The notes under the pieces are model-generated. The model did not search any database, was not told where the DNA came from, and was given only the letters and a program-made list of their open reading frames with translations. From the NCBI GenBank assembly GCA_963674825.1, contig OY771587.1, positions 2,624,001-2,688,000 on the forward strand: DNA of 64,000 bases. The letters run 5' to 3'. Origin of the DNA: Candidatus Cloacimonadales bacterium. GTDB lineage: Bacteria; Cloacimonadota; Cloacimonadia; Cloacimonadales; JAIOQZ01. A program made the position numbers and the translations under genes. The first letter of the stretch is position 1, and every line of letters starts with the position of its first letter. Below, piece by piece: positions 1,426 to 12,894 of the stretch.

Positions 1426-1659
1426 ATGTCAGAATTCAAACCAGTAACAGCCGATCAGTGGATCGAAGACATTTTAAGGGCCTATCCCGATTCTCAGGAC
1501 TTTCTGAGCAAACACGGCATCGTGTGCGTGATGTGCGGCGAGCCGGTTTGGGGAAGCCTCGAGGAGCAGATGGAAGAAAAGGGTTTTGATGACGAAAAGA
1601 AGCAAGAGCTTGTGGCCGAACTGAATAAATTCCTTGAAGCTCGGTACGGCGAGTCTTAA
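1426..1659 (+). CDS. DUF1858-family small CxxC protein (hybrid-cluster-associated redox disulfide domain)
   Basis: AAGGAG RBS then ATG at 1426 (77 aa). The pattern IEDILRAYP...FLSKHGIVCVMC...SLEE...G matches the family. Confidence 0.75.
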   Translation: MSEFKPVTADQWIEDILRAYPDSQDFLSKHGIVCVMCGEPVWGSLEEQMEEKGFDDEKKQELVAELNKFLEARYGES

Positions 1660-1807: not shown

Positions 1808-3100
1808 ATGCCTGCGATGCAGCTCGAAAAGATGCGTCAGGCTCACAAGATTCTTGCTGATATCCCCTTCGAGATCGTGCAGATTGACCGCGGATATGCT
1901 AACCGTACCCTGCATGTCGATATCAGTTCGAATACCGTCGAGACCAAACCCGTTTCCCAGGAGATGAAGGATCTCTGGATAGGCGGTAAAGGCTTCGATC
2001 TGTGGCTGACTTTCCAGCAAATCACCAAAGACACCAAGTGGAATGACCCGGAAAATCCGCTGTGTTTCAGCTCAGGACCTCTGGGCGGAACTACCTCGTT
2101 CCCGGGCTCCGGAAAGACCATCGCAACCGCGATCTCACCACTAACCAATTCCATGATGGACTGTAATGTCGGCGGCTATTTCGGCCCCTACCTCAAATTT
2201 GCCGGTTTCGACGCACTCAGCGTGTCCGGTAAGGCAACTGAAGAGACCATCGTGATGATCGACGCCGTGAAAGGTCGAATCACCATTGAACAGGCCCCGA
2301 TGGAAAGCGTCGATTCGCACATTCTTGCCGAAGAACTCACCGATATGTATGCCGACGACGAGCTCGACAAGCGTAACATCGCCGTGATCTCTGCCGGTAG
2401 TGGCGCAGACCACAGTCGCATGGGCGTACTCAACTTCTCTTTCTACGACTGGCGTCGTCGCGTTCCCCGGCTCAAACAGGCCGGCCGTGGTGGCATCGGT
2501 ACCGTTTTCCGCGACAAGAAGCTCAAGGCCATCGTGATCAAGAATCGCGGTATTACGCCGGCATGGCGCGTTCACGAGAGCAAGCCTGCCAAAATGATGC
2601 GCCCGAAAGAGCTTATAAGAGTCACTGATGATCGTATGCAGACCATTAGCGATATCATCGCCAAATGGAGCCGCGATCCCGAGTATGTAATCGAGATGAT
2701 GCAAGATATCCAGAACGAATTCCGGTGTATTCCGCAGGCAGCCATAGACGAGCTGACCGCACAGACCGGAACACCGCGTTCCTGGCTCTATCACATCGCA
2801 ACATTCTATAAAGCGTTCAGCCTGGAAGAAAAGGGCGAGACCATCATTCAGGTCTGTATGGGGACCGCTTGTCACGTCAAGGGCTCCGCGAAGCTTCTGG
2901 ACGCGTTCCAGCGTGAGCTGGGCTGTCCCGTTGGCGGAACCACGACAGATCGCAAGTTCAGCCTGGAAGGCGTTGCCTGCCTGGGCGCATGCTCCATCGC
3001 GCCGGTTGTGAAGATCGGCGAGGAGGTTCATGGCGGCGTGCAGGTCAAGGACGTGAAAAAGCTGATCGAACAAGCAAAGAAGGAGAAGGACCATGCCTAA
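1808..3100 (+). CDS. Fusion of the aldehyde:ferredoxin oxidoreductase N-terminal domain (AFOR_N) and a NuoE/HydC-like [2Fe-2S] domain
   Basis: Residues ~1-245 carry WIGGKG, ISPLT...DCNVGGYFGPYLKFAGFDAL and AGRGGIGTVFRDKKLKAI. Residues ~275-430 carry ATFYKAFSL, CMGTACHVKG and CLGACSIAP. Confidence 0.92.
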   Translation: MPAMQLEKMRQAHKILADIPFEIVQIDRGYANRTLHVDISSNTVETKPVSQEMKDLWIGGKGFDLWLTFQQITKDTKWNDPENPLCFSSGPLGGTTSFPGSGKTIATAISPLTNSMMDCNVGGYFGPYLKFAGFDALSVSGKATEETIVMIDAVKGRITIEQAPMESVDSHILAEELTDMYADDELDKRNIAVISAGSGADHSRMGVLNFSFYDWRRRVPRLKQAGRGGIGTVFRDKKLKAIVIKNRGITPAWRVHESKPAKMMRPKELIRVTDDRMQTISDIIAKWSRDPEYVIEMMQDIQNEFRCIPQAAIDELTAQTGTPRSWLYHIATFYKAFSLEEKGETIIQVCMGTACHVKGSAKLLDAFQRELGCPVGGTTTDRKFSLEGVACLGACSIAPVVKIGEEVHGGVQVKDVKKLIEQAKKEKDHA

Positions 3101-4973
3101 GCTATCACCACACGATATTCCTCGCATCGCCGGTGAAGAAAAGGCACGTCAGGCAGCCTGGAAGGGCATGTTGATGGTCTGTACCGGTACCGGTTGCGTA
3201 TCCGCGCATGGTTTCGACATTCTCCATGCATTACAGAAAGAAATCAAGGACGCCGGACTGGACAAGGAATGGGTCGCGGTAGGCACAGGCTGTAACGGCT
3301 TCTGCGCTGCCGGTCCGATCGTGGTTGTCCAGCCGCAGGGCGTATTTTATCAGAAGGTGCAGGTCGCGGACGCTAAAGCGATCGTTGACGAGCATCTCAA
3401 GGGCGGTACGCCGGTCGAGCGCATCCTGTTCAAGGATCCTGTCAGCGGTGTGGTAGCCCATACGATGGACGAGATCGGCTTCTTCCGCAAACAGCAGTTG
3501 ATCGCGCTCCGCAACAAGGGTCTCATCGATCCCGAGAATATCCAGCACTACATCGCGCGTGGCGGATACGAAGCGTTACGCAAGGTTCTGGAGCGGAAAG
3601 AACCGGAAATGGTCATTCAGGAAGTGATCGCATCCGGTATTCGCGGACGTGGTGGCGGTGGTTTCCCGACCGGCATCAAATGGAAATCCGGTCGCAAGGC
3701 TGCCGAAGAGCGTAAGGAAGAAATCTATGTGGTCTGTAACGCGGACGAGGGCGATCCCGGTGCATACATGGACCGCAGTATCATCGAGACCGATCCGCAC
3801 TCGGTGCTGGAAGGTCTGCTGATCGGTGGTTTTGCCGTGGGCGCGAAAGAAGGCTTCGTCTATATCCGTAAAGAATATCCGCTGGCTATGGATCGACTGC
3901 ACATCGCGATCGACCAGGCTCGCGAGATGGGCCTGCTGGGCAAAGACATCCTTGGTTCGGGCTTCGATTTCGATATCCACGTGCATCGCGGCGCAGGCGC
4001 GTTCGTCTGTGGCGAATCGACCGCACTCATGGCCTCCATGTCAGGTCGTGCGGGTGAGCCGCGCGCCAAGTATGTCCACAACGTCGAATATGGCTATCGC
4101 GACAAGCCCACTGTGCTTAACAACGTTGAGACCTGGGCAAATATCCCGGTGATCCTCGAAAAGGGCGCGCAGTGGTTTGCAAGCATTGGCTCCGGCGACG
4201 TGAGCGAAAACCCGTGGAACGGCTCCAGCGGTGCGAAAGTGTTCTCGCTGGTAGGGGATATCCGCAATACGGGTCTCGTTGAAGCGCCGATGGGCATCTC
4301 ACTGCGAGAGATCATCGAAGATATCGGCGGTGGCATCCCGAACGGGCGGCAGTTCAAGGCCGTGCAGACGGGTGGCCCCAGTGGTGGCTGCATTCCCGCA
4401 TCCATGCTGGATATGACCGTCGATTTCGATTCGCTGACCGACGCCGGCTCCATGATGGGCTCAGGCGGCATGATCGTAATGGACGACCATACTTGTATGG
4501 TTGACGTGGCGCGCTATTTCATCGACTTCCTCGTCGATGAGAGCTGCGGTAAGTGCACGCCTTGCCGTGAGGGACTTTTCCATATGCGGAACATCCTTCA
4601 GCGCATCTGTGACGGGAAAGGCAAGGAAGGCGACATCCAGACACTTGAAGAGCTAGCGTATACGATTCGCGAGACAAGCCTCTGTCAGCTCGGTGCGAGC
4701 GCACCCAATCCGGTGCTGTCTACGCTGCGTTATTTCCGTGAAGAATACGAAGAACACATTCGAGATAAAACGTGCCGTGCGGGAGTCTGCAAGGCATTGA
4801 TACACTACGAGATCAACGACAAGTGCGTAGGCTGTACGGCGTGCGCGAAGGCCTGCCCGGTAGATGCAATTCAGGGCGAGGTCAAGAAATTGCACACCAT
4901 CGATCTCGAGAAGTGCATCAAGTGCGGCATCTGCTATGAAACCTGTAAGTTCGATGCAGTGGAGGTGAAGTAA
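3093..4973 (+). CDS. NuoF/HydB/BfuB-like FMN-NAD(P)H subunit, bifurcating type
   Basis: N-terminal [2Fe-2S] (CTGTGC...GCNGFC), GRGGGGFPTG, NADEGDPGAYMDR, GGPSGG, ESCGKCTPCREG, EHIRDKTCRAGVC and a C-terminal 2x[4Fe-4S] domain. Confidence 0.93.
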   Translation: MPKLSPHDIPRIAGEEKARQAAWKGMLMVCTGTGCVSAHGFDILHALQKEIKDAGLDKEWVAVGTGCNGFCAAGPIVVVQPQGVFYQKVQVADAKAIVDEHLKGGTPVERILFKDPVSGVVAHTMDEIGFFRKQQLIALRNKGLIDPENIQHYIARGGYEALRKVLERKEPEMVIQEVIASGIRGRGGGGFPTGIKWKSGRKAAEERKEEIYVVCNADEGDPGAYMDRSIIETDPHSVLEGLLIGGFAVGAKEGFVYIRKEYPLAMDRLHIAIDQAREMGLLGKDILGSGFDFDIHVHRGAGAFVCGESTALMASMSGRAGEPRAKYVHNVEYGYRDKPTVLNNVETWANIPVILEKGAQWFASIGSGDVSENPWNGSSGAKVFSLVGDIRNTGLVEAPMGISLREIIEDIGGGIPNGRQFKAVQTGGPSGGCIPASMLDMTVDFDSLTDAGSMMGSGGMIVMDDHTCMVDVARYFIDFLVDESCGKCTPCREGLFHMRNILQRICDGKGKEGDIQTLEELAYTIRETSLCQLGASAPNPVLSTLRYFREEYEEHIRDKTCRAGVCKALIHYEINDKCVGCTACAKACPVDAIQGEVKKLHTIDLEKCIKCGICYETCKFDAVEVK

Positions 4974-6964
4974 TGGAAAAGGTCGATATCGTAATCAACG
5001 GTAAGAAGACTACCGTCCCGAAAGACACCTACCTGCTGAAAGCGATCCAAAATGCCGGACTCACCGTTCCGACGCTGTGCCACCACAAGGATCTGACGCC
5101 TTCGGGCACCTGCCGTCTATGCGTGGTCGAGATCGAACAGAACGGGCGCAAGAAGATCGTGACGAGCTGCAACTATCCCGTTCGCAGCGAGATCAGCGTG
5201 GAGACCGACAGCGAGCGCATCAAGCAGCATCGCAAAGTCCTGGCTGAGATGTACCTGGGGCGCTGGCCGAACGTACCGGTTATCCAGGACGTAGCCAAAC
5301 GCTGTGGTGTGACCGAAAGCCGCTTCACCAGCGAGCTCACCGAAGAGAGCGAGAAAGCTTGCATCCTCTGCGGTCATTGCGTGCGGGGTTGCCATGAATT
5401 CATCATGGAAGACATCCTCGATTTTGCGGGACGCGGCATCAAGCGTCACCTGACGATGCCGTTTGGAGAGGTAGATCCGCATTGTATAGGCTGCACGAGC
5501 TGTGCCTATGTATGCCCGACCGGGGCGATCGAGGTTATCGACGATCTCCAGAATCCGGTCAATCCCAAGCTGATTCGCGACTACGGTATGCGTATCAACG
5601 CCGAGATGGCGACACTCGACCAGAACCAATGCCGCATGCGCGACGTTGGTACCGCCAACATTGTGGACGTGATGGACGCTTATGATCTTTTACCAGTGCA
5701 CAACTATAAGTTCGGTAAGCATGAAGAGACTTGGAAGATCGACTCTAAAATGCTGAAGAGAGAGTACTTTACACAGCAAATGCCTGATGGCTGCTGGAAA
5801 GGTTGCTCGATGGCGTGTGCGAAAGCGGTAGATGATTTTGAACTCAAGACCGGACCCTACAAAGGACAGAAAGTCTGTGTGGACGGACCAGAGTACGAAA
5901 CCGCGGCTGGTGCGGCAAATATGGGCTGCTTCGATGCTGACTTCCTGGTTGAATTCAACTTCTACTGCGATACGTACGGTGTGGATACCATCTCGGTGGC
6001 TACCTGTACGGCATTCGTGATGGAGGCGTTTGAAGCAGGCCAGATAACGACAGAACATACCGGCGGACTCGAGCTTAAATTCGGTGCTACCGACGAAGTG
6101 CTGGAGTTGTTGCATCAGATGGCGCGCGGCGAAGGATTTGGGGTGGATGTCGGGCAAGGTATCCGCTGGCTGAAAGAGAAGTGGGCTCGTGAGTACGGTG
6201 CCGACGCAGCGTTCCTGCAAGATATCGGTATGGAGGTCAAGGGCCTCGAATACTCCGAGTATGTTTGTAAAGAATCGCTGGCGCAGCAGATCGGATATTC
6301 CGCGGCTGTAAAAGGACCGCAGCACGACGAGGCCTGGCTGATTTTTATGGATATGGTCAACAACCAGATTCCGACATTTGAGGACAAAGCAGAAGCGCTC
6401 TACTACTTTCCGCTGTGGAGAACCTGGTTTGGTCTTCTGGGCCTGTGCAAGCTGATCTGGAACGACGTTGTTCCGGCAGACAACAGCAAATATGCACCAC
6501 CAGTAGCTGCGAAGGTTCCGGGGCATGTCGAGGACTTCTTTAAGTTCTTCGAAGGCATGACGGGACAACCGCTGGACGAAGAGAAGATGCTGGCGCAGTC
6601 GGCAAGGGTTCACAACCTTCAGCGGTTGATGTCACGCATGCTGGGCTATGGTACGAGAAAGGACGATATTCCTCCTTATCGCGCCGTAGGACCGGTTACC
6701 GAAGAGGAATTCCTTTCACGGCAGGATCGTTTCGATAAGCAGTTAAAGGAAACAATCGGCGTCGATCCCGAAAAGATGACGACCGAAGAGAAGATGAAGA
6801 CGCTACGAGAATATCGCATGCAGCAATACAACAAGGCTCTCGATGCCGTTTATCAGAGACGTGGCTGGACACCTGATGGTGTACCGACAGTCGAACGCCT
6901 GAAAGAACTGGGCATCGATATTCCTGAGCTGGTAGCAATCGCGAAGGATGATAAGACAGCCTGA
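4973..6964 (+). CDS. Fusion of a HydA/NuoG-type N-terminal FeS domain ([2Fe-2S] + 2x[4Fe-4S]) and the AOR C-terminal domains (AFOR_C)
   Basis: PTLC...CRLCVVE...TSC, CILCGHCVRGC and CIGCTSCAYVCP are followed by the AOR motifs GCWKGCSMAC, DGPEYE, CDTYGVDTIS, GPQHD, GLCK and YQRRGWTPDGVPT. Confidence 0.92.
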   Translation: MEKVDIVINGKKTTVPKDTYLLKAIQNAGLTVPTLCHHKDLTPSGTCRLCVVEIEQNGRKKIVTSCNYPVRSEISVETDSERIKQHRKVLAEMYLGRWPNVPVIQDVAKRCGVTESRFTSELTEESEKACILCGHCVRGCHEFIMEDILDFAGRGIKRHLTMPFGEVDPHCIGCTSCAYVCPTGAIEVIDDLQNPVNPKLIRDYGMRINAEMATLDQNQCRMRDVGTANIVDVMDAYDLLPVHNYKFGKHEETWKIDSKMLKREYFTQQMPDGCWKGCSMACAKAVDDFELKTGPYKGQKVCVDGPEYETAAGAANMGCFDADFLVEFNFYCDTYGVDTISVATCTAFVMEAFEAGQITTEHTGGLELKFGATDEVLELLHQMARGEGFGVDVGQGIRWLKEKWAREYGADAAFLQDIGMEVKGLEYSEYVCKESLAQQIGYSAAVKGPQHDEAWLIFMDMVNNQIPTFEDKAEALYYFPLWRTWFGLLGLCKLIWNDVVPADNSKYAPPVAAKVPGHVEDFFKFFEGMTGQPLDEEKMLAQSARVHNLQRLMSRMLGYGTRKDDIPPYRAVGPVTEEEFLSRQDRFDKQLKETIGVDPEKMTTEEKMKTLREYRMQQYNKALDAVYQRRGWTPDGVPTVERLKELGIDIPELVAIAKDDKTA

Positions 6965-7565
6965 TCTGTTTAGTCGCAATGTGCCTGGCTCCACCGAAGT
7001 GCTTCAACGTGCTACGGTGGGGCTGGCGGGTTGCGGCGGACTTGGCTCCAATGTTGCCGTTGCGCTGATTCGCGCCGGGATCGGGAAGCTTGTTCTGGCA
7101 GATTACGATCGCGTCGAGCCAAGCAACCTGAACCGTCAGCACTACTTCCAATCCGATATCGGTAAACTCAAGACAATTGCCCTTGCTGAACACTTACAAA
7201 ACATCAATCCCGAAATTGAATTGAAATTAATCTCGAAAAAGCTTGCACCTTCGGATATTGCAGTAAACTTTGGCTCGGCTGACATCCTGATCGAGGCATT
7301 CGACAGGGCAGAGGCCAAGCAATGGCTGATCGAAGCCTGGTGCCGGCTGTTTCCCGATCGTCCGATCATAGTAGGGAACGGCATTGCAGGCTTGGGCGAG
7401 ACCAGCTCCATTAAGGTCCGGCAAATGGGCAACATCTGGTTCTGCGGAGACGGATGCAGCGACATGAGCATTGGACTGAGTGCGCCACGAGTAGGCATCG
7501 TAGCAATGATGCAGGCCAATGTGGCAATATCGATTCTTACAAAGGGAGTACATGATACTGGTTAA
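6948..7565 (+). CDS. thiF: ThiF/MoeB-family sulfur-carrier adenylyltransferase (short form)
   Basis: GCGGLGS, DYDRVEPSNLNRQ, IGKLK and EAFD; no Zn-binding CxxC pairs. Confidence 0.85.
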   Translation: MIRQPDLFSRNVPGSTEVLQRATVGLAGCGGLGSNVAVALIRAGIGKLVLADYDRVEPSNLNRQHYFQSDIGKLKTIALAEHLQNINPEIELKLISKKLAPSDIAVNFGSADILIEAFDRAEAKQWLIEAWCRLFPDRPIIVGNGIAGLGETSSIKVRQMGNIWFCGDGCSDMSIGLSAPRVGIVAMMQANVAISILTKGVHDTG

Positions 7566-7752
7566 TGACCGAGATGAGGTCGAATTCCGGGATAACATGA
7601 CCGTCCAGGATGTTCTGGACGAAATGGGGTACGATTGGGCGCTGTTGACAGTTACCGTCAATGACACCTATGTTCCTCAGGAAGAATATCAACATTATCA
7701 GGTGCCTGACGGTGCTGATTTTAAAGCCATGCATCTCTTTCATGGCGGATGA
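7552..7752 (+). CDS. thiS: ThiS/MoaD-family sulfur carrier protein
   Basis: GGGAG RBS, ATG at 7552, 66 aa ubiquitin-like protein ending in FHGG. Confidence 0.85.
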   Translation: MILVNDRDEVEFRDNMTVQDVLDEMGYDWALLTVTVNDTYVPQEEYQHYQVPDGADFKAMHLFHGG

Positions 7753-7933: not shown

Positions 7934-9460
7934 ATGCAAGAATTCTTAACACGACTCGGCATCAAGGAAGTGAATCCTGGAGCTTATTGCGGACGCTGGC
8001 TGGACACACAGGGCGAAATGATCGAAGTGTACTCACCGGTTGATGATTCTCTGATCGCGAAAGTAAGATCCGCTACCGCGGAAGACTATGACACCGTTGC
8101 CAAAGAAGCGCAGGAAGCCTTCAAGGTATGGCGTATGATCCCGGCACCCAAGCGTGGTGAAATCGTGCGTCAGCTCGGTGAAGCACTGCGTGAGCAGAAA
8201 GAAGACCTGGGCAAGCTCGTTACGCTTGAAATGGGGAAAATTCTCACAGAAGGACTCGGCGAAGTCCAGGAAATGATAGATATGGCTGATTTCTGCGTGG
8301 GACTTTCCCGTCAGCTTTACGGCATGACAACCCATTCCGAACGCCCATACCACCGTATGTACGAACAGTGGCATCCTATGGGTGTAGTCGGCATCATCTC
8401 CGCGTTCAATTTCCCAGTCGCGGTGTGGTCATGGAACGCGTTCATCGCGGCTGTTTGCGGTGACACCATGATTTGGAAACCATCCTCATCAACTCCGCTT
8501 ACCGCCATCGCTGTACAGAACATTGTTCACAAAGTGCTGGAAGCAAACGATATCCCGAAAGGTATCTTTGGAATGGTGATCGGTCGCGGTAGTGTAATCG
8601 GTGAGAAGCTTATCAACGATCCGCAGATTCCGCTCGTTAGCGCAACCGGTAGCTGTGCCATGGGTAAGAGAGTTCATCAGGCTGCGGCAAAGCGCTATGC
8701 TCAGGTGATCCTCGAGCTGGGCGGCAACAATGCTGTTGTCGTGATGGAAGACGCCAATGTCGAGCTCGCTCTCAAGGCAGTGCTCTTTGGCGCAGTGGGA
8801 ACAGCCGGACAGCGCTGTACCTCCACTCGTCGCGTGCTGCTTCACGAAGACCTGCACGACAAGTTTGTCGAATCGCTCAAGAAGGCGTACAGCTCCGTGC
8901 CGATCGGCAATCCGCTGGACAGCAAGACACTTATGGGTCCGCTCGTCGATGGAGCTGCGGTCAAGGCGTACCAGAATGCAATCGAAAAGGTCAAGGAACA
9001 GGGCGGCGAGATCGTCTACGGTGGCGAAGTGATCGAATCCGGTGTGCCGGGTAAGCTCTATGTTAAGCCTACCATCGTGCTGGCGGAGAACGAATGGCAG
9101 ATCGTTCAGGATGAAACATTCGCTCCGATTCTGTACATCATCAAGATCAAGGACATCGACCACGCGATCGAGCTGCACAACGCGGTTCCGCAGGGTCTAT
9201 CATCCTCAATCTTCACCAATAATATGCGCTACAGCGAACGCTTCCTCTCGCATGCCGGTAGTGACTGCGGTATTGCCAACGTCAATATCGGAACTTCCGG
9301 TGCTGAGATCGGCGGTGCGTTCGGTGGTCAGAAAGAAACCGGTGGTGGACGTGAAGCCGGCAGTGATGCCTGGAAGGCCTACATGCGCCGTCAAACCAAC
9401 ACCATCAACTGGTCGACAGAAATTCCGCTCGCACAGGGTGTCAAATTCGATATCGATTGA
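7934..9460 (+). CDS. Aldehyde dehydrogenase family 7 (aminoadipate-semialdehyde / piperideine-6-carboxylate dehydrogenase-like)
   Basis: GIISAFNFPVAVWSWN, LELGGNN, GTAGQRCT, ETFAPILY, SDCGIANVNIGTSGAEIGGAFGG and INWS..PLAQG. Confidence 0.92.
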   Translation: MQEFLTRLGIKEVNPGAYCGRWLDTQGEMIEVYSPVDDSLIAKVRSATAEDYDTVAKEAQEAFKVWRMIPAPKRGEIVRQLGEALREQKEDLGKLVTLEMGKILTEGLGEVQEMIDMADFCVGLSRQLYGMTTHSERPYHRMYEQWHPMGVVGIISAFNFPVAVWSWNAFIAAVCGDTMIWKPSSSTPLTAIAVQNIVHKVLEANDIPKGIFGMVIGRGSVIGEKLINDPQIPLVSATGSCAMGKRVHQAAAKRYAQVILELGGNNAVVVMEDANVELALKAVLFGAVGTAGQRCTSTRRVLLHEDLHDKFVESLKKAYSSVPIGNPLDSKTLMGPLVDGAAVKAYQNAIEKVKEQGGEIVYGGEVIESGVPGKLYVKPTIVLAENEWQIVQDETFAPILYIIKIKDIDHAIELHNAVPQGLSSSIFTNNMRYSERFLSHAGSDCGIANVNIGTSGAEIGGAFGGQKETGGGREAGSDAWKAYMRRQTNTINWSTEIPLAQGVKFDID

Positions 9461-9825: not shown

Positions 9826-10950
9826 TTACTCGGAGATGATCTCGACATTGGCGCGGGGAATCATAACCCGTTCGCCGGTTTCGAGTTCGGCCTCGAGGAT
9901 ACGCACGAGGGTCTCTGATTCGACCTTTGTGAGTTCCTCAGGCATTGCGATGACCTTACCGATCTTACCGAAGTTGGGCTGGCGGATCACGCGTATGACC
10001 TTGCCGACTTCGATCATGGGCAGCTCGGATTCCTGCATTACAAGCTCGTCTTCCCTGAATTCGATCGGCCTGATAATCTCGGGGCGGATAACGCCGGCAC
10101 GAATCTGTGTGAAGCCGTGCATTGAGACGTTCTTACCCTGGAATCTCTTGAGCAGGTCGAAAGTCTTGTTTGCCATCTTGATCGGTCCGAAGCCTTCGGT
10201 AACCACGATGGTGAGTCCGATTTCTTCATGGCCTGTGATGGCGACACCGATGTCGTATCCGAGGAGCTTCTTGAGATCCTGGTCGTGGATACCGCCGGTG
10301 ATGATACCACTCACACCCACTTTCTGTGCTTTCATGATGACTTCGTAAGGCAGCATGGAGCCGGTAACAACGATTTTGCCTTTGTGGCTATCGTTGAGCA
10401 TGTCAGGCTTGAGGACTTCGTCGGCTGTGTTAACGACAACATCGATCTCGGCATTGATTTCGCCGCCGATACCGAAGATACCCTGGATGTAGGATGATTT
10501 ATTCTCGATAACGACGCCCTGCTCGGGGATAACCTCGACCACAACGCCATCGATGAACGCTTTGACTTCAACCGGGATACGCGGTTCGTTGAGAAGAACC
10601 TGGCCAGTGTGCCGGGAGATGCTCTGCACCTCACCCGCCGTGGGTGAGCGGACGGTAGTCTTGAACATACCGAGGAATCCGTTCGTCTGAGCGAGAATCT
10701 GGCCCTGGGTGATCTGGTCGCCTTCTTTCACTCTGAGGTATTGATCTACGAGCTGTGCCGTGACACCCAGCTTGTTCGCCAGGTTGATCGGGACAACTTT
10801 ACCCGGAAGCATGGTGACCGCGACGATCTGGTCGGCTTTGACCTTATCGCCTTTCTTGACCTTAACTTCGCCTTTCAACGGAAGGATTCGTTCTTTACGT
10901 ACGATGGTGCTGTCAGTTACGGCAAGTCCTTGCGAAAATGATTTTCCCAT
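9826..10950 (-). CDS. Conserved hypothetical partner of the GlmL-like ATPase (barrel-sandwich hybrid motifs, C-terminal KOW/SH3-like region)
   Basis: GGGAGG RBS. Repeated GEVKVKKGDKV / LRVKEGDQITQGQILA / SPTAGEV motifs, QGIFGIGG, TEGFG, TQIRAGVIRPE and GKVIRVIRQPNFGKIG. Confidence 0.7.
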   Translation of the reverse strand: MGKSFSQGLAVTDSTIVRKERILPLKGEVKVKKGDKVKADQIVAVTMLPGKVVPINLANKLGVTAQLVDQYLRVKEGDQITQGQILAQTNGFLGMFKTTVRSPTAGEVQSISRHTGQVLLNEPRIPVEVKAFIDGVVVEVIPEQGVVIENKSSYIQGIFGIGGEINAEIDVVVNTADEVLKPDMLNDSHKGKIVVTGSMLPYEVIMKAQKVGVSGIITGGIHDQDLKKLLGYDIGVAITGHEEIGLTIVVTEGFGPIKMANKTFDLLKRFQGKNVSMHGFTQIRAGVIRPEIIRPIEFREDELVMQESELPMIEVGKVIRVIRQPNFGKIGKVIAMPEELTKVESETLVRILEAELETGERVMIPRANVEIISE

Positions 10951-10960
10951 GCGATCCTCC

Positions 10961-12853
10961 CTATTTCAGTATTTCTTCGGGGTACACATCAAGCTCACGC
11001 ATCCACTTCTTCAGAAGTCTACGACGCTCAGCATGATCGGTCGGCAGAACGAACGGATTACGGCCACGTGTATCAATCACGATACCCACGACGCCGCCCC
11101 AGAGGGTGGTTTCCAATTCCTGATTCTTACCGGCACCGATGTCGAGTCCCCGACCCGGTTTAAGTTTAGCTTTGGCGGTTTCGCCGACTCCACACGGAAT
11201 CAGGCGCATCTCGCCGAATGGAATGTCTTCTTTGAATGATTTTCCGCCGGGAAGCTCTATCTCGACGGTCAGTGCGGTTCCCTTGCCCTTGAAGGGGCCA
11301 ACCGGCGCGACGACGGTTCCGAGGTAGATCATACAGTCTTTGTCGAACACTTCGGTCGCAGCTTTTTCGCTGATCTCGGCCAGCACGCCAAGGTGCGGCA
11401 TCATGAAGATACTATCGACGCCAAGGCGGGTGATGCCTTCGGGAAGAAACGCGTCGATCAGCATAAGAACGGTCTGATTACGGCGCGGTGCGTGCGATGC
11501 CACACCACCGGAACCGACCAGCAGGTCGAGAGACATCATGTCAACGATGGTTCCGCCAGAGACGCTCTGGCTGAATGCTTCGGAGATTTCGCGCTTCTTC
11601 TGCGTACCCTTGAGGGTCACGGCAAATTCTTTGTGCTGCACGAATGCGAGCCGCAGCGCTTCCTTGGCGATCGCCTGCTCCAGAACCAGCTCTTCCAGCT
11701 TCTGCGGAATGGTGGTCGGGCGGATCATCTTGTTCTTGATCATGTTGCGCAGTTCGGATTCGTCGATATCGAGCGGAACCCAGCGCAGGATGTTTTCCAG
11801 ACCGGCGGAGGCGAGAACGTTGGAGATCGAGTAACTCATACCCAGGTTCGCGCTCACGGTACGGTTGAAGATGTATTTCGGTGGCTCGCCTTCTTTGACG
11901 TCTTTATCCTTGAATACGGAGAAAACGTCGGTGGTTGCGCCGCCAATGTCCACGCCCAGCACCTCGATGCCTTCATTACGGGCGATGGTTTGCATGATGT
12001 TACCCACAGCAGCCGGAGTCGGCATGATGGGGATATTCTGCAGCTTGCCGTCGAGCGGACCGCGGGTCCACTGCATCAGCTTGTTGTAGCCGGGGGCTTG
12101 CTGCATAACGTGCTCCATGAAAAGATCATGGATTTTGTCGCGCGCTGGTCCGAGGTTTTCCACTTCGAGAGTGGGCCGGATGTTCTCAGTAAGAATCAGG
12201 TCGCTCTTCTCTGCGAGCGTTTCCTTGATGATATCCTGCGCGTCTGTGTTACCTGCGTAAATAACCGGAAGCTTGTAGCTCGAACCGAGGCGCGGCTTGG
12301 GATCCGCGGCTGCGACGAGCTCTGCAAGCTCGGCAACATGCTTCGTGGTACCGCCATCGACCCCCCCCGCCATCAGGATCATATCTGGGCGCAGATGACG
12401 AATACGTTCAATCTTCTCGTAGTTGGCACGCTGATCGTTGCTTGCGATCAGGTCCATCACGATCGCGCCAGCGCCAAGCGCGGCACGTTCGGCACTTTCA
12501 CCCGTCATTCGGGCGACAACACCTGTTACCATCATCTGAAGACCACCACCAGCGCTACTGGTCGATACGTACGCATCGACACCAACATCGCCGTTACGAG
12601 GGATGATGATTTCTTCGTTCTCGATGAACTTGATGTTCTTGTTGCCATACTTGAGCTGCGCAAGCTCTTCAAGCTCCTGCACCGAGTTGATGACACCTTT
12701 GGTCACGTCGTTGAGCGGCGCTTCAACAGTCGTAGGCGCCTCACCGCGAACAGTCTGACGAAATTCGCCATCAACGTACTCGATGAGGATGGCTTTGGTC
12801 GTCGTACTGCCGCAGTCGGTGGCGACAATTCTCCGTAACTGCTCATTTGCCAT
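10961..12853 (-). CDS. GlmL (glutamate mutase L)/OraF-family ASKHA ATPase, putative B12-mutase reactivating factor
   Basis: ATDCGSTTTK, STSSAGGGLQM, GGVDGG, IMPTP, VDIGGATTDVFS and RTVSANLGM. GGAGG RBS before the ATG at 12853. Confidence 0.8.
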   Translation of the reverse strand: MANEQLRRIVATDCGSTTTKAILIEYVDGEFRQTVRGEAPTTVEAPLNDVTKGVINSVQELEELAQLKYGNKNIKFIENEEIIIPRNGDVGVDAYVSTSSAGGGLQMMVTGVVARMTGESAERAALGAGAIVMDLIASNDQRANYEKIERIRHLRPDMILMAGGVDGGTTKHVAELAELVAAADPKPRLGSSYKLPVIYAGNTDAQDIIKETLAEKSDLILTENIRPTLEVENLGPARDKIHDLFMEHVMQQAPGYNKLMQWTRGPLDGKLQNIPIMPTPAAVGNIMQTIARNEGIEVLGVDIGGATTDVFSVFKDKDVKEGEPPKYIFNRTVSANLGMSYSISNVLASAGLENILRWVPLDIDESELRNMIKNKMIRPTTIPQKLEELVLEQAIAKEALRLAFVQHKEFAVTLKGTQKKREISEAFSQSVSGGTIVDMMSLDLLVGSGGVASHAPRRNQTVLMLIDAFLPEGITRLGVDSIFMMPHLGVLAEISEKAATEVFDKDCMIYLGTVVAPVGPFKGKGTALTVEIELPGGKSFKEDIPFGEMRLIPCGVGETAKAKLKPGRGLDIGAGKNQELETTLWGGVVGIVIDTRGRNPFVLPTDHAERRRLLKKWMRELDVYPEEILK

Positions 12854-12894
12854 AGAGTCCTCCATTTATCTGAGAAATTATTCTATACTCTGGT

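Follow-up and report, generated by a model that had tools for sequence, protein, structure and literature searches.

A tungsten-type aldehyde oxidoreductase split around a Bfu electron-bifurcation module, with candidate cofactor import, in a Cloacimonadota genome

Three overlapping genes, ORF1 to ORF3, on the 64,000-nucleotide (nt) stretch of DNA analysed here (the window; Candidatus Cloacimonadales bacterium, contig OY771587.1, positions 2,624,001 to 2,688,000) encode an aldehyde oxidoreductase (AOR) of the tungsten oxidoreductase (WOR) kind whose two halves lie on separate genes, with a complete Bfu electron-bifurcation module placed between them and fused to both. The architecture itself is firm. 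Bifurcating aldehyde oxidation with an imported tungsten cofactor is the best reading of it, at a probability of roughly 0.6. A fuller proposal falls a little short of even odds: the complex would be an unlisted type of bifurcating tungsten enzyme, complete in itself and with its W site clamped between the BfuC and BfuA chains, in a phylum, abundant in digesters and sediments, that is auxotrophic for the tungsten cofactor and obtains it preformed by riboswitch-controlled ECF import.

Gene layout, split point and catalytic site

ORF1 (1808-3100, + strand, 430 amino acids (aa)) consists of AOR domain 1 (aa ~26-253), a linker and a BfuC/HydC part. It matches the Pfam domains AFOR_N (aa 33-246, E 7e-48) and NuoE-type 2Fe-2S (2Fe-2S_thioredx, aa 281-423, E 5e-42) and, in the PDB, HydC (8a6t_C), WorC (9mqx_C) and AOR (1aor_A). 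ORF2 (3093-4973, +, 626 aa) is a NuoF-like BfuB/HydB by Pfam, alignments and motif positions, running from an N-terminal thioredoxin-like 2Fe-2S domain through FMN, SLBB and NADH_4Fe-4S domains to a C-terminal 2x[4Fe-4S] domain. ORF3 (4973-6964, +, 663 aa) joins Fer2 (aa 2-80), 2x[4Fe-4S] (aa 127-187) and AFOR_C (aa 207-648, E 3.5e-90) by Pfam; its N-part (4973..5545, +) is BfuA-like, with WorA (9mqx_A, E 5.6e-41) as best PDB match, and its C-part (5546..6964, +) aligns to 1aor, 8c0z and 9g7j as WOR/AOR domains 2-3. ORF1 and ORF2 overlap by 8 nt, ORF2 and ORF3 by 1 nt. Domains and overlaps thus bear out a preliminary description of this DNA, which had read three coupled genes, AOR_N-NuoE, NuoF and FeS-AOR_C.

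The catalytic subunit of AOR and WOR enzymes is normally one polypeptide that holds tungstopterin between its domains. Here it is divided over ORF1 and ORF3, with AFOR_N and AFOR_C both above the Pfam cut-off on two genes, and the host genome (a single contig, 99.57% complete) contains exactly one AFOR_N and one AFOR_C, both of them in these ORFs. AOR similarity ends after KKLKAIVIKNRG (ORF1 aa 237-248, nt 2516-2551) and restarts at LQNPVNP (ORF3 aa 192, nt 5546). The split site is the linker between AOR domain 1 and domains 2-3, and the C-B-A module sits inside it. Thirteen split and nine intact proteins were compared at this junction. Intact relatives run from KQAGRGG...K-KA-V into an N-P-D...G-[KR] helix within ~10 residues, whereas the split N-half ends at P-x-W and the C-half restarts at the N-P, so that AOR residues are almost neither lost nor duplicated. 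The P-x-W end (2516..2566, +, including the preceding motif) is common to both split types and absent from the intact relatives compared. The break at the domain linker that had been read from the letters was therefore recovered against intact relatives, to which the halves align without notable loss or duplication; their N- and C-half trees are congruent and do not place them in different clades.

That the layout is an artefact of assembly, or an AOR pseudogene disrupted by an insertion, was rejected and has a negligible probability: two genomes of the genus share it at 87-94% identity, as do dozens of others, the frames are open and the ligands invariant. Among 80 GTDB loci of many phyla, kept from 575 confirmed matches, the break falls at the same place in 42, and the other 38 are intact-looking (37 whole, 1 fragment), which excludes misassembly. 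One public contig, possibly the source of this DNA, spans the stretch with 0 differences.

Alignment to 1aor, 8c0z and 9g7j places Thr243, Glu311, Tyr312, Glu313, Tyr427 and His448 at T227, E307, Y308, E309, Y430 and H451 of ORF3, and the [4Fe-4S] ligands at C274, C278, C282 and C492, the fourth Cys being mapped through 8c0z. K103 occupies the position of an Arg in 1aor. All mapped catalytic and cluster residues of ORF3 are invariant in 81/81 rows. The regions of the Mg-binding Asn93 and of Ala183 map onto ORF1, and therefore both chains contribute to the cofactor pocket. Residue roles follow PMC12096430 (this and most papers cited below were available in part, and statements on them refer to those parts). 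In the BamB/YdhV type described there, the metal has a Cys ligand and the second-shell residues are lost; here no Cys is apparent at that position in the GPEYET motif and the second-shell residues are retained, which sets the protein outside that type.

The predicted fold of ORF3 resembles AORs plus WorA (AlphaFold2 model, pLDDT 83, pTM 0.75); aa 142-170 are poor, so no cluster geometry was taken from it. When ORF3 was modelled in complex with ORF1 aa 1-265, the score was 0.93, and the highest of three controls reached 0.00; contact agreement between runs was at least 95% and partner pLDDT at least 91. The mark set for this score is reached by 116/157 solved pairs and 2/215 mismatched pairs. 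The model shows fit, not binding, since halves of a split gene can pass via solved AORs. In it the BfuA ferredoxin domain (aa 121-130, 167-196) also contacts ORF1 near the AOR cluster; we know of no solved template for contacts of this domain with an AOR_N chain. The catalytic subunit is very probably made of two chains and probably carries a W-pterin cofactor. The tungsten site assembled from two chains, as put forward in the preliminary description, stands as far as docking goes, with the addition that in this host it would need an imported cofactor (see below).

Predicted bifurcating core and proposed electron flow

ORF2 carries all ligands for clusters B1, B3, B4 and B5, and its B2/Zn-site residues (C468, C506, H555, C561, C566) are the five of NiFe-BfuB. 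The bifurcation signatures of Losey are present (A224/M226, F304, GGPSG 427-431), together with a family-specific insert at aa ~366-379. Ligand and domain criteria were those of PMC9304861, and PMC7311640 supplied the three signatures that mark the sequences of bifurcating beta subunits. C350, C355, C391 and C395 of ORF1 are the C1 [2Fe-2S] ligands. The BfuA part of ORF3 has the A1 [2Fe-2S] ligands C36, C47, C50 and C66 and two [4Fe-4S] clusters (C130-C140 and C171-C181), its 12 Cys being invariant in 81/81 rows; the A3 and A5 motifs are absent from it. This cluster set fits the pattern of BfuB clade 45 (Wor, Bam, FdhFeFe) in PMC9304861, but ORF2 itself has a higher bit score to A. woodii HydB (762) than to WorB (about 740). 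With FMN and B1-B5 in BfuB, C1 in BfuC and A1 and A2 in BfuA, the insert is the complete C-B-A module that had been proposed. The CGEST motif of ORF2 is that of the NADP-using T. kivui HydB, the NAD-using WorB having CGESS; either NAD or NADP may be the acceptor. Seven crude motif tests were applied to 50 BfuB frames from split loci, two loci being counted twice, and 32/50 passed all seven.

In the mechanism we propose, a cytoplasmic W-pyranopterin oxidoreductase would be built from the ORF1 N-half as domain 1 and the ORF3 C-half as domains 2-3, the latter bringing the [4Fe-4S] cluster and the catalytic Thr, Glu, Tyr and His. The two halves, observed apart and docked in the model, would close around one W-bis-pterin, whose metal we infer. 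An aldehyde, probably from peptide or amino-acid fermentation, would be oxidised to the acid; an aldehyde is a likely substrate. Electrons would pass from W through the AOR cluster to the two [4Fe-4S] clusters and the [2Fe-2S] cluster of the fused BfuA and on to B1/FMN of BfuB, where, aided by C1 on ORF1 and as in solved Bfu enzymes, they would split between NAD(P)+ and ferredoxin. Tight coupling of this bifurcation is favoured a shade less than the aldehyde substrate.

Aldehyde oxidation (about -560 mV) can reduce ferredoxin or NAD(P)+ downhill. A split tungsten enzyme that is no strict bifurcator, its Bfu part being a plain NAD(P)+ or ferredoxin outlet, is an unlikely alternative that nevertheless has relatives to point to: loci whose BfuB is without B3/B4/B5 or the FMN domain stay split (L007, L013, L018, L020, L036, L040), and the E. 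limosum WOR reduced ferredoxin without NAD (PMC13390469). However, the copy in the window retains every Bfu-defining ligand and signature, and the Wor-Bfu of Acetomicrobium mobile is reported to reduce neither acceptor alone (PMC9304861).

A number of observations count against bifurcating aldehyde oxidation as proposed. The Tyr452 equivalent is Trp (W455), and G487 stands in place of the conserved Asp that lies five positions ahead of the fourth cluster Cys (in P. furiosus numbering, the residues at K103, at G487 and at that Cys are Arg76, Asp489 and Cys494). Identity to solved AORs is just ~20-22%, and the literature searched holds no characterised member of this WOR clade. The pass of the complex model, which gives no cluster distances, may reflect likeness to solved intact AORs. 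At least one crude motif test is failed by 18/50 BfuB frames, and 4 split loci have lost most of BfuB. From the literature, a review grants Wor-Bfu proven distribution to ferredoxin and NAD+ only (PMC12096430), and the partly purified E. limosum WOR did not bifurcate (PMC13390469).

The host genome contains further HydBC-type modules (G000:C1:2447594-2453251, 3378607-3382490 and 3520007-3527134, G000:C1 being the host contig), one with a 1134-aa Nfn/Stn-like A subunit, the others being hydrogenase-like clusters, in one of which NuoF is present twice. The genome also has an Rnf operon, at 333356-338565.

Cofactor supply in the host

Searches of the closed host genome by hidden Markov model found no MoaA, MoaC, MoaE or MoeA, the controls for these searches each being matched in 11/14 genomes. 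Moreover, no host orthologue came up in tblastn searches with MoeA, MoaA, MoaC, MOSC-like, Mog-like, ModA and WtpA proteins from the phylum. WtpA and ModA are absent from the host genome; TupA was checked through PF12849 only. A MoCF_biosynth match was rejected as a synthesis gene, its sequence reading as a CinA-like frame. A hidden tungsten transporter was likewise rejected, since both PBP_like_2 matches turned out to be PstS and the ModB-like permeases to be parts of a sulfate ABC system. Molybdate, when concentrated, can enter through sulfate systems, but this provides no pterin. With no recognisable genes for pyranopterin synthesis or W/Mo uptake, the tungsten site would form in this host only with an imported cofactor.

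The gap is wider than the host. Among 201 Cloacimonadota genomes, MoeA was found in 12, MoaC in 14 and an AOR of any kind in 145; just 10/145 AOR-positive genomes have MoeA. It is lacking in 127/133 phylum genomes with this WOR clade, and 44/54 phylum genomes with an ordinary AOR lack both MoeA and MoaC. MoeA is frequent in the genomes from which the 80 loci come (32/42 split, 23/38 intact), and in 7 loci, apparently of one lineage, the split operon is immediately preceded by wtp genes for a tungstate transporter (WtpA above cut-off in 2/2 tested). The enzyme therefore looks tungsten-dependent and the gap looks like a trait of the host. Orphan molybdoproteins have been noted as unexplained (PMC6147048), and a Cloacimonadota preprint (10.1101/2021.10.08.463351) lists AOR in 23/35 clade I genomes, with no mention of molybdenum or tungsten in the part available. 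Four loci (L161, from the closed genome G020:C1; L163, L172, L173) have ordinary AORs with MoaD/MoeB neighbours in genomes without moeA and moaC; the L161 AOR has its own RF01055 riboswitch.

The operon extends past ORF3, beyond the genes covered by the preliminary description, into an overlapping thiF (ThiF/MoeB-type E1 adenylyltransferase; 6948-7565, +; NF006395 above cut-off) and then thiS (ThiS/MoaD-type sulfur carrier; 7552-7752, +; 66 aa with GG at the end; Pfam ThiS). ThiF is kept behind most split loci, and ThiS beside split members and many intact ones. ThiF probably activates the ThiS-type carrier for cofactor maturation or repair. A role in thiamine synthesis was rejected, the genome being without a true thiG and giving just a weak 64-residue match. 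AOR-linked MoaD/MoeB neighbourhoods (PMC1779556) likewise have a sulfur carrier and an E1 beside AOR; unlike in those, there is no molybdopterin synthase here.

A MobB/FeS-type protein occurs in 142/145 AOR-positive and 15/56 AOR-negative phylum genomes, 16 weak matches (E above 1e-6) having been set aside. A search for the sulfite-oxidase pterin fold found a ~305-aa member near mobB; a strong ~200-270-aa protein of that fold was dropped since it does not track AOR. The conserved operon consists of a lipoprotein, a YkoE-like S component (PF09819), a pterin-fold protein, two small proteins, two ATPases, a TonB receptor and EcfT, often with mobB. The pterin-fold protein has no conserved Cys, and pterin binding by sulfite-oxidase-fold proteins that have no Mo Cys is known (PruR, PMC13259868). 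The S component is present in 124/135 phylum genomes with AOR and no MoeA and in 2/10 with both; either MoeA or the S component occurs in 134/145 AOR-positive phylum genomes. By hand count, genomes of the 80 loci have it in 14/25 MoeA-negative (8 weak matches) and 5/55 MoeA-positive cases. The RF01055 riboswitch precedes the operon in 8/11 full operon loci scanned and 5/12 shorter S-component loci, one of the latter from a Tissierellales genome. P3 is absent from 4/4 riboswitches aligned, the host's own among them; this form of the molybdenum cofactor (Moco) riboswitch has been tied to the tungsten cofactor (PMC2408646). In the host, the S, pterin-fold, small and ATPase genes lie at G000:C1:3010955-3014539 (L230:7956-11540), EcfT at G000:C1:2952570-2953319 and the MobB-like gene at G000:C1:158006-158755. 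Four conserved membrane genes (DUF6754 and partners; G000:C1:158768-161991, L182) are often found between the ECF operon and mobB in the family f4.

An ECF transporter with partners of pterin-binding fold would thus bring the tungsten cofactor, or one of its late precursors, into the host, where the MobB-like protein and the adjacent ThiF/ThiS would mature it. On this distribution, import of the cofactor in this host is likely; the imported ligand could instead be a precursor or the metal. Riboswitch-controlled ECF vitamin importers are similarly built, their S, T and A/A' components following a cofactor riboswitch (PMC3766115), and the literature searched, of which that paper was available in part, describes no ECF importer for the molybdenum or tungsten cofactor. 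Import is weakened by several counts. The S component also occurs in 20/54 phylum genomes with neither AOR nor MoeA, and it went unmatched in 11/25 MoeA-negative genomes of the 80. Neither a riboswitch match nor a clear TonB-receptor orthologue accompanies the ECF operon of the host itself, and the counts from related phylum genomes and the 80 loci are not independent.

A host without any pterin, with another ThiF/ThiS-built sulfur cofactor, an unrecognised pterin pathway or an apo-enzyme kept for its ferredoxin:NAD(P) module, would agree with the lack of MoeA in most phylum genomes of the clade, with ThiF/ThiS remaining attached without MoaE, and with a review in which, in the part available, Moco uptake is known only in C. 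elegans (PMC9026282). We consider it very improbable. Ordinary AORs of the phylum lack the pathway too; the gap therefore extends beyond the clade, and a pterin-independent clade was downgraded. Hosts elsewhere have MoeA and adjacent wtp genes, and outside supply is indicated by the riboswitch, which senses the cofactor, and by the complementary ECF pattern.

The host has one riboswitch, a P3-less molybdenum/tungsten cofactor type (G000:C1:1242477-1242599, - strand, L232), 33 nt before an NAD-linked glutamate-semialdehyde dehydrogenase. It may signal that a tungsten enzyme has a back-up and so give a clue to the substrate of that enzyme: an alternative isoenzyme, turned off in the presence of the cofactor, would fit an enzyme that oxidises glutamate or aminoadipate semialdehyde. 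An L-piperideine-6-carboxylate (ALDH7-type) dehydrogenase follows the operon (7934-9460, +), and the deep, uncharacterised WOR clade with its W455 leaves room for a different job, the reverse reduction of an acid with reduced ferredoxin and NAD(P)H included. Such a job is nevertheless distinctly improbable: the neighbouring dehydrogenase is outside the conserved neighbours of 120 loci, the link between riboswitch and dehydrogenase occurs in one genome only, and the four AOR second-shell residues are standard.

If import is correct, bacteria would cross-feed a cofactor thought to need home synthesis, and a MobB-like GTPase with ThiF/ThiS would be a minimal insertion and repair kit. Tungsten enzymes without pterin synthesis across a phylum make bacterial uptake of the molybdenum or tungsten cofactor testable, which bears on trace-element cross-feeding in anaerobic digesters.

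Relatives, origin and known systems

The best 120 homologues of each fused gene, out of thousands of matches and so no count of the family, carry the same fused Pfam set in 120/120 cases (AFOR_N with NuoE-type, and Fer2/Fer4 with AFOR_C). Split hosts include Krumholzibacteriota, Aminicenantes, Myxococcota, Cloacimonadota, Elusimicrobia, Bdellovibrionales, Synergistia and Bacillota. The A-AOR_C fusion is present in 42/42 split loci. Their other genes are arranged as AOR_N-C followed by B in 16, a single-frame AOR_N-C-B in 16 and AOR_N with a decayed B in 4, the N-half being off the contig in 6. Of the 201 Cloacimonadota genomes, 133 have the WOR clade, 11 of them at 67% identity or more and resembling the window's type. 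Twelve lower-identity phylum loci, picked for frame lengths suggesting fusion, were also examined: eight have a four-gene form (family f4, L114-L125), in which a free AOR_N (262-302 aa as called; about 264 aa) is followed by C, B and A-AOR_C, one is partial and in three the N-half was not reached. The three-chain form is one of at least four layouts; the heterotrimer claimed earlier would apply to this locus and not as the sole form.

FastTree trees were built from 37 split (both halves present), 37 intact and 7 distant representative rows. Split rows form one clade in the N-half, C-half and joined trees (support 0.84, 0.96 and 0.94), nested among intact proteins. In IQ-TREE, run on 53 rows after 9 long, duplicate or incomplete rows were excluded, each split type has 100/100; their union has 74/55, a weak support for a single origin, and a clade test of split types I and II neither showed nor rejected a single clade. 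The BfuB insert is shared by both types and absent from the four solved HydB/WorB chains aligned. Both halves derive from one uncharacterised ~720-aa WOR clade. Descent from different AORs was rejected, there being one AFOR_N and one AFOR_C in the genome and congruent half trees. The bfuCBA genes probably entered the linker of an intact ~720-aa WOR once, and one insertion followed by stepwise fusion would be the simplest course: A-AOR_C would have come first, then AOR_N-C and, in some lineages, AOR_N-C-B. Since a four-gene form with free AOR_N exists, of the cassette proposed earlier the insertion at the linker stands, and a single double in-frame fusion gives way to steps.

Intact members of this clade, the parent group in the trees, are found in Cloacimonadota, Bacteroidales, Clostridia and Bipolaricaulota (e.g. 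L054, Fervidicella). They share 58-63% identity in the C-half, and ThiS/ThiF often adjoin; unlike the split enzyme, they are one chain without Bfu genes and often have a polyferredoxin neighbour. This 127-140-aa polyferredoxin adjoins the WOR gene in 21 loci, every one of them intact, and the Bfu module therefore appears to replace a WorS-like partner.

WorABCSL of A. mobile (Wor-Bfu Type 2, PDB 9MQX; PMC12318220, PMC9304861) resembles the present system in its W site and BfuABC core, its BfuA without A3 and the KY-H motif of its BfuB. However, its WorL is intact, with three WorS nanowire subunits and a WorA with zinc finger and helix, whereas here the operon has no S subunit and the WorL counterpart is split and fused to BfuC and BfuA. 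Identity to 9mqx_D is 20%, WorL there belongs to clade 87, and the locus falls outside Type 2. As the WOR comes from a distant clade, the WOR-Bfu pairing looks independent of WorABCSL. Type 1 Bfu enzymes (FeFe-HydABC, Nfn/Stn-Bfu, Fdh-Bfu, F420-Bfu; PMC9304861) share the catalytic domain behind the BfuA Fe-S domains and the C-B-A gene order, but the text available lists no Type 1 Wor and no BfuC that carries part of a catalytic site. The AORs of P. furiosus (1AOR) and Aromatoleum aromaticum (8C0Z) share fold, cluster Cys and second-shell residues; they are single-chain, with CxxCxxxC in place of the CxxxCxxxC found here and the Tyr452 replaced here by Trp.

In the Bfu survey, Wor-Bfu appears solely as a Type 2 enzyme whose S and L subunits are separate, and the main text does not contain 'split', 'fused' or 'fusion' (PMC9304861), so the architecture is absent from the available text of that catalogue. 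No split or fused AOR-Bfu appears in the main texts searched, and Bfu/WOR supplementary tables could list them. The available parts of PMC12318220, PMC12096430, PMC13390469, PMC1779556, PMC3766115, PMC10021017 and PMC13556243 and of preprint 10.1101/2021.10.08.463351 make no mention of such a design. By sequence comparison, this is a real variant of the WOR and Bfu families, widespread among uncultured anaerobes, and not a WorABCSL member. It would be a second, apparently independent coupling of a tungsten oxidoreductase to a Bfu core, with 2-4 chains against the nine of WorABC(SL)3, and a simpler object for how HydABC-type cores bifurcate, with natural variants without B3/B4, B5 or the FMN domain. 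As a naturally split AOR, it makes cofactor insertion studiable by mixing halves.

Decaying Bfu modules in split WORs are of three kinds: the FMN domain lost (L018, L020, L036, L040), B3/B4 and B5 lost (L007, L013), or an AOR_N-C-B fusion without B5 (L008, L034, L035, L043). A BfuA-AOR_C paralogue behind BfuB (L083:791-2806, P0246, P0247) has EYET changed to DYRA and no His, with the Fe-S Cys kept, and is possibly a pseudo-enzyme; a metagenome scan with it gave one locus, ending before its N-half. P0241 (862 aa, Cloacibacillus cluster) is an intact clade member with a ~130-aa insertion inside AOR domain 2. Upstream of ORF1, 1426-1659 (+) encodes a 77-aa hybrid-cluster-associated redox-disulfide-like protein (TIGR03980 below cut-off) retained only in the two genus relatives. 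Lastly, a GlmL/MutL-type (PF13941) gene and a 374-aa barrel-sandwich partner occupy 9826-12865 (-) of the window, and the same pair lies near an AOR in L175.

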